From Escherichia coli (GTDB lineage Bacteria; Pseudomonadota; Gammaproteobacteria; Enterobacterales; Enterobacteriaceae), in assembly GCF_030013595.1 (NCBI RefSeq), contig NZ_CP122768.1: 64,000 nt of DNA; one strand, given 5' to 3'. Made by a program: the position numbers. Positions 32,001-35,000 of the stretch are shown here, piece by piece (the first letter of the stretch is position 1; each line of letters starts with the position of its first letter).

Positions 32001-35000
32001 GAGTCCATGACCTTATCTGTCTGATTCCGCCACTCTGTGCCGGTTTACTGCACCGGCACATCCCCCCTCCGGCAAAATTTGTCCAACCTGTTGTACTCAA
32101 TAAGAAAAAATCCGTGCGCTGATTCACAAATTTGTGCGTAATTTCTCCAGTCCGTTGGACGAGGAGCGGGATTTGATGCGCTTCACAATTTTACTCCCCC
32201 TGAGCAACGAGACTGATTCCAGTATCTAAGACTGGAGTCCAGTATGTTGGAATCAAGCAAAGTTCCCGCCCTAACACGGGCTATTGATATTCTCAATTTG
32301 ATTGCCCGCATTGGCCCCTGTAGTGCTGCGACGATCATTGACACATTGGGGATCCCTAAAAGCACGGCCTATTTGCTGCTTAATGAACTCAGGCGTCAGC
32401 GTTTTCTTAGCCTTGATCACCAGGAAAATTTTTGTTTGTGGACCAAGCTGGTGGAGCTTTCCGGTCATGCGTTAAGCAAGATGGATCTCCGGGAACTGGC
32501 TCGACCGCGTTTGACGCAACTGATGGATACCACCGGGCTGTTATGTCACCTGGGGGATTATTGATAACGGCAGCGCTTATTACATTTTGAAAGTGGAGTC
32601 ATCAGCCACTATCAGCGTGCGTTCCCATGAAGGAAAAAGCCTTTCGCTTTATCGCTCCGGAATAGGTAAATGCCTGCTTGCCTGGCAACCTGCAGCTGTA
32701 CAGCAAAGTATTATCGAAGAGCTGGTCTGGGAGCAGATGACACCCACCACCATTACCCATCCACAACGGCTCTACGAGGAACTGGCGCGTATTCGCCGTC
32801 AGGGCTGGAGTTATGACAACGGCGAAGATTATGCTGATGTCCGTTGTGTCGCTGCGCCGGTGTTTAACGCCAATAACGAGCTTACCGCTGCGATTTCGGT
32901 GGTCGGTACCCGCTTACAAATCAATGAAGAATACCGTGATTATCTGGCGGGCAAGGCCATTGCCTGCGCCAGGGATATTTCACGTCTGTTGGGATGGAAA
33001 AGTCCCTTTGACTTACAGGCCTCATAACAATGGAGAACATTATGACCCTACCAAAAATCAAACAGGTTCGCGCCTGGTTTACTGGCGGTGCGACAGCAGA
33101 AAAAGGCGCTGGCGGCGGTGATTATCACGACCAGGGGGCAAATCACTGGATTGATGATCATATTGCCACCCCGATGAGTAAATACCGCGATTACGAGCAG
33201 TCACGCCAGTCATTTGGCATTAACGTTCTTGGCACGTTGATTGTTGAAGTCGAAGCAGAAAACGGCCAGACCGGATTCGCCGTTTCGACAGCCGGTGAAA
33301 TGGGCTGTTTTATTGTCGAAAAACATCTTAACCGTTTCATTGAGGGTAAATGTGTCAGTGATATCAAACTGATCCACGATCAAATGCTCAATGCCACCCT
33401 GTATTACTCCGGCTCTGGTGGCCTGGTGATGAACACGATTTCCTGTGTCGATCTGGCTCTGTGGGATCTGTTCGGCAAAGTGGTCGGGCTTCCGGTTTAT
33501 AAACTTTTAGGCGGCGCAGTTCGTGATGAGATTCAGTTCTACGCCACAGGTGCGCGTCCGGATCTGGCAAAAGAGATGGGCTTTATCGGTGGCAAAATGC
33601 CGACGCACTGGGGGCCACATGATGGCGATGCGGGGATCCGCAAAGATGCCGCTATGGTCGCGGATATGCGTGAAAAATGCGGTGAGGATTTCTGGTTAAT
33701 GCTCGACTGCTGGATGAGTCAGGACGTGAACTATGCCACCAAACTGGCCCACGCTTGCGCGCCCTATAACCTGAAATGGATCGAAGAGTGCCTGCCGCCA
33801 CAGCAGTATGAAGGTTATCGCGAACTGAAACGCAACGCGCCAGTCGGAATGATGGTCACCAGCGGTGAGCATCACGGCACACTGCAATCTTTCCGTACGC
33901 TTTCAGAAACCGGTATCGACATTATGCAGCCGGATGTTGGCTGGTGCGGTGGCTTAACCACGCTGGTGGAAATTGCCGCAATCGCCAAATCCAGAGGGCA
34001 ACTGGTGGTGCCGCACGGTTCGTCTGTTTACTCTCACCATGCGGTGATCACCTTCACCAATACGCCATTCAGCGAATTCCTGATGACCAGCCCGGATTGT
34101 TCAACGATGCGTCCGCAATTTGATCCGATTCTGCTTAATGAGCCAGTGCCGGTGAATGGTCGTATTCATAAATCAGTGCTTGATAAACCCGGTTTCGGCG
34201 TCGAACTCAATCGTGACTGCAATTTGAAACGCCCCTACAGCTACTAATCACTCCGGGCGTTGCTGTGACAACGGTAACGCCCACATATTCTAAGGAGCTT
34301 TTTATGAGCACCGCTTTGCTTGACGCCGTGGTGAAGAAAAACCGAGCGCGTATAATTCCGTTTATGTTGGCGCTGTATGTGCTGGCATTTCTCGACCGTT
34401 CGAATATTGGTTTTGCTAAACAGACCTACCAGATTGATACCGGGCTGAGTAATGAAGCTTATGCGCTGGGAGCAGGCATTTTCTTTGTGGTATACGCGTT
34501 TCTGGGGGTTCCGGCGAATCTTTTGATGCGCAAACTGGGGGCCAGAACCTGGATTGGTACGACAACACTGCTGTGGGGATTTCTTTCGGCAGCCATGGCA
34601 TGGGCCGATACTGAAGCGAAATTTCTGATCGTTCGTACTCTGCTTGGTGCTGCGGAGGCCGGGTTCTTCCCTGGTATGATTTATCTCACCTCGCAATGGT
34701 TTCCGCAGCGTAATCGCGCCAGCATTATGGGGTTGTTCTATATGGGCGCACCGCTGGCGTTAACACTGGGATCACCGCTTTCCGGCGCGCTGCTGGAGAT
34801 GCATGGATTTATGGGGCATCCCGGCTGGTTCTGGATGTTTGTGATTGAAGGATTGCTGGCAGTCGGCGCTGGGGTATTCACATTCTTTTGGCTTGATGAC
34901 ACACCGGAGCAGGCACGTTTTCTGAGTAAACAAGAAAAAACGTTGCTTATCAATCAACTGGCAAGTGAAGAACAACAGAAAGTGACTTCTCGATTGAGCG

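Follow-up and report, generated by a model that had tools for sequence, protein, structure and literature searches.

A one-base insertion in a G run divides rhmR, the predicted regulator gene of the rhamnonate operon, in one clone of Escherichia coli

Introduction

Is the division of the rhmR gene (yfaX) in a sequenced isolate of Escherichia coli a genuine mutation or an artefact of sequencing, and what would the loss of this gene mean for the operon that it heads? The question was raised by a stretch of 64,000 nucleotides (nt) of contig NZ_CP122768.1 (RefSeq assembly GCF_030013595.1), the whole of which is called the window here, in which the gene for a predicted regulator of rhamnonate catabolism is separated into two open reading frames (ORFs) by one extra G. 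A preliminary description of the window had offered two readings, namely a catabolic operon that has lost its regulator or a homopolymer sequencing error. The analysis favored a real and inherited mutation, a +1 frameshift by which rhmR, the first gene of the rhmR-rhmD-rhmT-rhmA operon, is inactivated and which has become fixed in one clone. This reading was given a probability of roughly 0.88. The lesion is an ordinary lineage-specific pseudogene in a regulator gene that is known but functionally only predicted, and both of its fragments have already been deposited publicly as separate "IclR family transcriptional regulator" proteins.

Division of the rhmR reading frame

Five G residues were read directly in the window at 32552-32556, where the surrounding sequence at 32550-32559 is ctGGGGGatt. 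The rhmR frame is intact through codon 104, and the extra G falls at codon 104/105. Straight translation from 32244 then meets stops after ...HLGDY, of which the final two codons (GAT TAT) and the following TGA are an out-of-frame reading. The elements of the divided gene are as follows.

32244-32564, plus strand: 5' fragment of rhmR/yfaX, ATG start, 106 amino acids (aa), C terminus ...TTGLLCHLGDY followed by TGA; it spans the winged helix-turn-helix (wHTH) domain and the linker and extends ~30 positions into the effector domain
32552-32556, plus strand: run of five G in which the +1 insertion lies; the ancestral form is G4 (CTG GGG ATT, Leu-Gly-Ile), and the aligned locus of the nearest complete genome (L001) has a gap opposite the window G at 32552
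32562-32564, plus strand: premature TGA resulting from the frameshift, seen in the sequence, the ORF list, and the translation
32587-33027, plus strand: 3' remainder of rhmR, its longest ORF, TTG start, 146 aa in the +1 frame; it includes IclR_C profile positions 43-174

The preliminary description had reported an extra G in this run, fragments of 106 aa and 146 aa, and a continuous 260-aa frame upon deletion of one G. All of this was borne out: the insertion is evident in the sequence, the ORF list, and the translation, both ORFs were recovered, and the deletion of one G gave a 260-aa ORF (...CHLGIIDNGSAYYILKVES...) whose product matches, at every residue, the intact YfaX annotated in the closest complete genome (WP_001551381.1).

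The protein domains were divided in the same manner. The HTH_IclR domain (PF09339) was found at residues 9-58 of the 106-aa fragment with a score of 39.7 bits (cut-off 22). The IclR_C domain (PF01614) was distributed over both products, with profile positions 2-31 in the N-terminal fragment, positions 43-174 in the separate ORF, and positions 32-42 in neither, and it became contiguous (profile positions 2-174, 211 bits) only once one G was removed. Because no Shine-Dalgarno sequence was found before the candidate starts TTG at 32587, GTG at 32593, and GTG at 32617, the 3' fragment is probably not translated to a useful level. The start of this C-terminal fragment is also called differently by public gene callers, which report either 146 aa or 136 aa.

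Comparison with relatives and clone-mates

For a single-base event a chance statistic is inapplicable, and comparison with relatives is the relevant test. The nearest complete genome, that of the pig isolate E. coli HCP5S3_I2 from the UK (NZ_CM149870.1; about 0.06% divergent), carries four G and an intact rhmR. Across window positions 8000-57000 (about 49 kb), the two sequences differed at 30 substituted positions and by an IS10 insertion of 1329 bp, and 1-bp insertions or deletions (indels) numbered only two, a count by which a generally error-prone assembly was ruled out. One of the two indels is the G in rhmR, and the other is a run of T9 in the window against T8 at 12421, in the intergenic spacer between elaB and menF.

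The truncated gene was found to recur in public data. The exact 106-aa product was present on 48 public contigs (EED0143416.1, EEW8460346.1, EFH7328415.1, EFH8987690.1, and UniRef A0A2S8JX64), and 49 contigs, STE71181.1 among them, carried the 136-aa version of the C-terminal fragment. Six loci drawn from five data sets, comprising GCA_017839865.1, GCA_001650605.1, GCA_021649405.1, and the Logan assemblies SRR30668406 and SRR19716120, were compared with the window as its clone-mates. The exact truncated products are encoded by all six loci, and GGGGG was seen in the two that were read directly. Each locus differs from the window by 0-3 single-nucleotide polymorphisms (SNPs). Three clone-mates carry private differences from the window in the form of SNPs, one of them together with a 13-bp deletion between yfaZ and yfaY. 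Additionally, the arnB-ais junction is spanned by three clone-mate loci (L004, L005, and L007), and the IS10 of the window was present in none of the three. Because these private differences and the lack of IS10 occur despite near-identity, the clone-mates are judged from their sequences to be separate isolates of one clone, independently sequenced and assembled.

Since five data sets other than the window share the lesion, while HCP5S3_I2 as an outgroup keeps four G and an intact frame, sequence comparison identifies the 5-G frameshift as a real allele that postdates the divergence of the clone from the HCP5S3_I2 lineage, and by the same comparison G4 is the ancestral state. A count of the G run in close relatives, which had been proposed as a check, thus gave five G in the clone-mates read directly and four G in both HCP5S3_I2 and the best complete-genome matches. 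Of the complete RefSeq E. coli genomes, 3977 hold this segment, and an identical 81-mer with five G was found in none of them; the best matches were all of 80 nt and correspond to four G, although a 5-G genome with a nearby SNP would fall into the same identity band as the 4-G genomes. Similarly, no identical 784-mer was found among 5426 complete RefSeq E. coli genomes, and the top whole-gene matches were all of 783 nt.

Identity of the regulator

By descent the gene is a member of the IclR family, as judged from its sequence, and an intact member is not encoded in the window. The repaired RhmR aligned over residues 7-250 to the Thermotoga IclR structure 1mkm (TM-IclR) with E = 8e-30. It also aligned from about residue 75-80 to the effector domains of KdgR, AllR, IclR, and YiaJ, the alignment to KdgR covering residues 80-252. 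Its best NCBIfam similarity was to BhcR, with a score of 163 bits that is far below the BhcR cut-off. Orthology to yfaX was indicated by a DNA identity of 783/784 (99.9%) to annotated intact yfaX in many genomes and by a position directly upstream of rhmD-rhmT-rhmA. The locus and its neighbors are those of E. coli rhmR (yfaX), whose product is predicted to be the IclR-family regulator of rhmRDTA (yfaXWVU), and they include yfaZ and yfaY upstream, and rhmD, rhmT, rhmA, an rpn-family gene, and glpCBA downstream. The difference from intact RhmR lies in the extra G, which truncates the window protein to 106 aa, whereas the best-matching complete RefSeq genomes all have four G.

The gene had been described at the outset as an IclR-type rhamnonate regulator. 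The matches to HTH_IclR and IclR_C upheld the first part of this name, while the second part, the rhamnonate role, is a prediction from gene order and family. Experimental work on RhmR/YfaX was not found in the literature searched, which contained predictions only, and RhmR/YfaX is not mentioned by Gao et al. (2021). The "RhmR" of Rodionova et al. (2013) was set aside as an unrelated protein, a LacI-type regulator of Chloroflexus. In its two-domain architecture, the repaired RhmR resembles KdgR, XynR/YagI, YjhI, Salmonella SL1344_3500/XynR, and TM-IclR (1mkm), and the content of the rhm operon resembles that of operons controlled by sugar-acid IclR regulators (PMC12445098), with a transporter, a dehydratase, and an aldolase. 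In contrast to the characterized sugar-acid IclR regulators, the ligand, operator, and regulatory sign of RhmR are at most predicted, and the window protein is cut within the effector domain.

Loss of the rhm locus in other lineages

Lesions of the rhm locus were frequent among the complete E. coli genomes. The rhmR gene was present in 3979 of the 5426 genomes and absent in the other 1447 (about 27%). Likewise, at least 80% of rhmDTA was present in 3823 of 5426 genomes and less than 80% in about 1600, where most of the remainder keep only the last 462 bp of rhmA. In the one example examined, NZ_CP050646.1 (locus L008, 3937-4462, compared with window 32025-36413), yfaY is separated by 64 nt from the 462-bp remnant of rhmA, all of the sequence from rhmR through rhmD and rhmT into the 5' part of rhmA having been cleanly deleted.

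Smaller lesions were also observed. Other truncated rhmR alleles of 180 aa and 114 aa were present on 22 and 26 contigs, respectively, and another lineage carries a second rhmR frameshift a few codons upstream (P0012). Within rhmT, an IS1 element was found in one genome, and an insertion of mcr-1-pap2 has been published (PMC6206212). In addition, strain K-12 BW25113 showed no growth on L-rhamnonate in spite of its intact RhmR, according to a 2026 preprint (bioRxiv 10.64898/2026.05.20.726482). Because about 27% of the complete genomes have deleted the locus and other rhmR truncations occur, the comparison of these sequences indicates that the rhm locus is dispensable in E. coli. The wider pattern is one of piecemeal loss, through full deletion, truncation of rhmR, and insertion of IS elements or mcr-1 in rhmT, and the frameshift of the window fits such a decay of an accessory catabolic locus.

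The whole-operon deletion allele abolishes RhmR, as does the lesion of the window. The two differ in that the deletion takes away everything from rhmR into the 5' part of rhmA and leaves the 462-bp remnant, whereas the clone of the window retains three intact catabolic genes. The lesion also agrees with the ordinary homopolymer-slippage pseudogenes of enterobacteria, which are 1-base insertions in short runs that have been fixed in a clone and which likewise affect accessory catabolic loci deleted in other lineages. In this respect the case is typical and shows no notable difference.

Expected consequences for the operon

The genes that follow rhmR, and the region that precedes it, are as follows.

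32025-32243, plus strand: intergenic region between yfaY and rhmR, in which the promoter and operators of rhmRDTA presumably lie
33042-34247, plus strand: rhmD, L-rhamnonate dehydratase, intact (NF011968, 820 bits, cut-off 393), starting 14 nt past the rhmR stop
34304-35593, plus strand: rhmT/yfaV, MFS (ACS-family) transporter, intact and full-length
35610-36413, plus strand: rhmA/yfaU, 2-keto-3-deoxy-L-rhamnonate aldolase, intact (NF007521, 596.5 bits, cut-off 441)

The earlier statement that the downstream genes are intact was confirmed, as rhmD and rhmA pass the NCBIfam equivalog cut-offs and rhmT is full-length. The three genes differ hardly at all from their annotated counterparts in the nearest relative, and yfaX-rhmD-yfaVU is handled as one operon in the literature (PMC8743547; PMC6206212). 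In the last codon of rhmD (34242), the window and its clone-mates have TAC (Tyr) where the nearest complete genome has CAC (His), and this change of the C-terminal residue is probably neutral.

Several repeats were found in the intergenic region. A perfect 12-bp palindrome, CACAAATTTGTG, lies upstream of rhmR at 32125-32136, and a related half-repeat, TTCACAATTTT, occurs 59 bp downstream at 32182-32192. Additionally, an inverted repeat, GATTCCAGT-N7-ACTGGAGTC, spans 32215-32239 and overlaps the GGAG ribosome-binding site. These three are candidate operator or CRP-like sites, or could form an mRNA hairpin. Matches to the sigma-54 pattern numbered 49 across the window against 44 expected, which is the level of chance, and the nearest match lies within yfaY (31927-31942). 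An RpoN peak from genomic systematic evolution of ligands by exponential enrichment (gSELEX) has been reported for K-12 (PMC8743547), and because the matches are at chance level, no inference on that peak was made.

Replication slippage would have converted the ancestral G4 to G5. Translation now reads ...L-G-D-Y-stop, with the 106-aa peptide as the only full-size product possible, composed of the wHTH and about 30 of the 174 effector profile positions. Lacking most of the effector and oligomerization domain, this peptide would probably be inactive, and effector-responsive control of the rhm operon would be lost. Hence, of the earlier proposal that the catabolic operon may have lost its regulator, the part that stands plainly is that no full-length regulator is encoded; a functional loss for the operon is probable, as far as can be judged from the sequence.

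As for the direction of change, derepression is favored by a narrow balance, because the characterized relatives that control similar transporter-dehydratase-aldolase operons repress. RhmR would act as a repressor at its own promoter region in the manner of KdgR, IclR, AllR, the XynR/YjhI types, and Salmonella SL1344_3500, and its loss would derepress the operon. Repression has been described for the sugar-acid IclR regulators related to RhmR, including KdgR, the XynR/YjhI types, and Salmonella SL1344_3500 (PMC12445098), and the PDB matches of the repaired RhmR include the repressors IclR, AllR, and BlcR. Any resulting constitutive transcription would be weakened, as ribosomes would leave the mRNA 477 nt before rhmD, which could bring about Rho-dependent polarity. 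Over these untranslated 477 nt the C/G ratio is 0.97, and C is modestly enriched in a patch at 32685-32755. Overall, the lesion is best taken not as a regulatory device but as an early stage in the decay of a dispensable locus, neutral or nearly so.

Alternative explanations

Several points, besides the banding of 5-G and 4-G genomes described above, weigh against this account. The reality of the allele rests on the clone-mates rather than on the window isolate's own reads. A sigma-70 consensus scan upstream of rhmR returned no site, rhmD may have an internal promoter, and the C-over-G bias of the untranslated segment is weak, such that Rho polarity need not be strong. The effect could also go the other way, as the IclR family includes activators of the PobR/PcaU types and the closest NCBIfam is BhcR. 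Should RhmR be an activator, the frameshift would silence rhmDTA, and its intact genes, no longer expressed, would be on the way to being lost. As an account of the consequence, though not of the nature of the lesion, this alternative deserves serious weight, with a substantial though lesser chance of being correct. It gains from the presence of PobR/PcaU types among the profile and structure matches and of BhcR as the best NCBIfam similarity. The deletion of the operon in about 27% of genomes is the expected end point for a silent operon, and K-12 BW25113 does not grow on L-rhamnonate with RhmR intact (bioRxiv 10.64898/2026.05.20.726482, 2026 preprint). Set against it are KdgR, IclR, AllR, and BlcR, the characterized enterobacterial sugar-acid relatives, which are repressors. 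In an adaptive version of derepression, the repressor knockout would lock rhmD, rhmT, and rhmA on and let the clone constitutively consume a sugar acid that is unusable for K-12, be it L-rhamnonate, L-lyxonate, or a relative of these, and low-level +1 slippage on GGG-G might add a trace of full-length RhmR. This version was considered unlikely; if true, the natural mutant would expose a cryptic physiological role and the regulatory logic of the rhm operon.

The remaining alternatives concern the lesion itself or its product. Indels in G runs are a classic error of some sequencing platforms, five G occurred in no complete RefSeq genome, and the sole other indel of the window is likewise homopolymeric (T9 against T8). 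An error over a true genome with four G and an intact rhmR is nevertheless very improbable, and this half of the preliminary description was not borne out: the 5-G sequence or the exact truncated product recurs in three NCBI and two Logan assemblies, independent data sets of which three have private differences, the truncated product is on 48 contigs, and the sequence has two indels per about 49 kb relative to HCP5S3_I2. It is also very unlikely that the ribosome slips +1 on CUG-GGG-G often enough to supply wild-type RhmR for control. Peptidyl-tRNA-Gly would re-pair perfectly with the overlapping GGG, the product L-G-I-I-D... would be wild type, and tRNA-Gly frameshift suppressors classically act on +1 insertions in G runs. 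However, the codon GAU that follows GGG is not slow, the A site holds neither a stop nor a rare codon, there is no stimulatory element, and ribosomes at sites of this kind normally slip spontaneously far less than 1% of the time, such that at most a trace of full-length RhmR would be expected. Moreover, the site is confined to one clone against about 3977 complete genomes in frame, with no sign of selection for recoding. A phase-variable switch, in which the length of the G run flips the regulator on and off, is extremely unlikely in spite of the homopolymeric position of the mutation. The run has only 4 or 5 G, with five in the clone-mates and four in the best-matching complete genomes, whereas contingency loci typically have 7-8 or more repeats. 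No length variation was seen among the clone-mates, a sample that is biased because it was retrieved via the truncated product, from which revertants would escape. Finally, the gene could remain functional in its split form, with the 106-aa peptide binding the operator as an effector-blind repressor or with the fragments reassembling. The N-terminal fragment does retain the entire wHTH and linker, and dimer contacts in the TM-IclR structure involve the N-terminal domain. The break falls about 30 profile positions into the effector domain and would leave an incomplete fold, the C-terminal fragment has neither a ribosome-binding site nor profile positions 32-42, and the DNA-bound form of IclR proteins is a dimer or tetramer held together by the C-terminal domain, all of which leave little credit for a working split gene.

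Implications of the allele

With the inactivating frameshift as the preferred reading, the two short deposited "IclR family transcriptional regulator" proteins correspond to one pseudogene, a correction that carries little weight beyond annotation. The 5-G allele is a handy marker of the clone. The isolates of the clone would also be natural rhmR-null strains with intact rhmDTA, suited to learning the regulatory sign of RhmR and the sugar acid that it senses.

Other observations in the window

A second pseudogene is indicated by the deubiquitinase gene elaD, present in the window as a 391-aa ORF at 9229-10404 on the minus strand. In the closest complete genome, PGAP annotates the same sequence, unchanged, as "frameshifted" (L001, 1183-2405). 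Because it is common to the nearest relative, the comparison places this lesion as older than that of rhmR.

A complete IS10 element of 1329 bp occupies 27195-28523, with a 9-bp target duplication, AGCAATGTC, such that the span including duplications is 27186-28532. It encodes an IS4-family transposase (27302-28510) and includes the Rfam family RNA-OUT on the minus strand (27240-27309, 98.8 bits). The insertion point is 4 nt upstream of the ATG of arnB (pmrH; 26051-27190, minus strand), and the native Shine-Dalgarno sequence of arnB (GGAAGGAAAAGCAatg) and the upstream promoter region are displaced by 1.3 kb. The outside end of the IS10, which bears the outward promoter pOUT, faces arnBCADTEF, and an in-frame ATG within the element (27250) gives an extended ArnB ORF of 399 aa. 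The IS10-arnB junction was found in none of the 5426 complete E. coli genomes and is also missing from the three clone-mate loci that span this position, by which the insertion is private to the isolate among the sequences compared. The arrangement could free the L-Ara4N modification of lipid A, and with it polymyxin resistance, from dependence on PmrA, or else impair this modification.

Beside rhmA, on the minus strand at 36454-37659, lies an Rpn-family gene (PF04754/HTH_Rpn_C) with tandem WQEGK(L/I)EG repeats, followed by a 74-aa partial duplicate of its own C terminus. Ten of the 30 SNPs that separate the window from the nearest relative are clustered within 46 bp of the Rpn repeat (36826-36871), a distribution that suggests repeat shuffling or gene conversion over point mutation.

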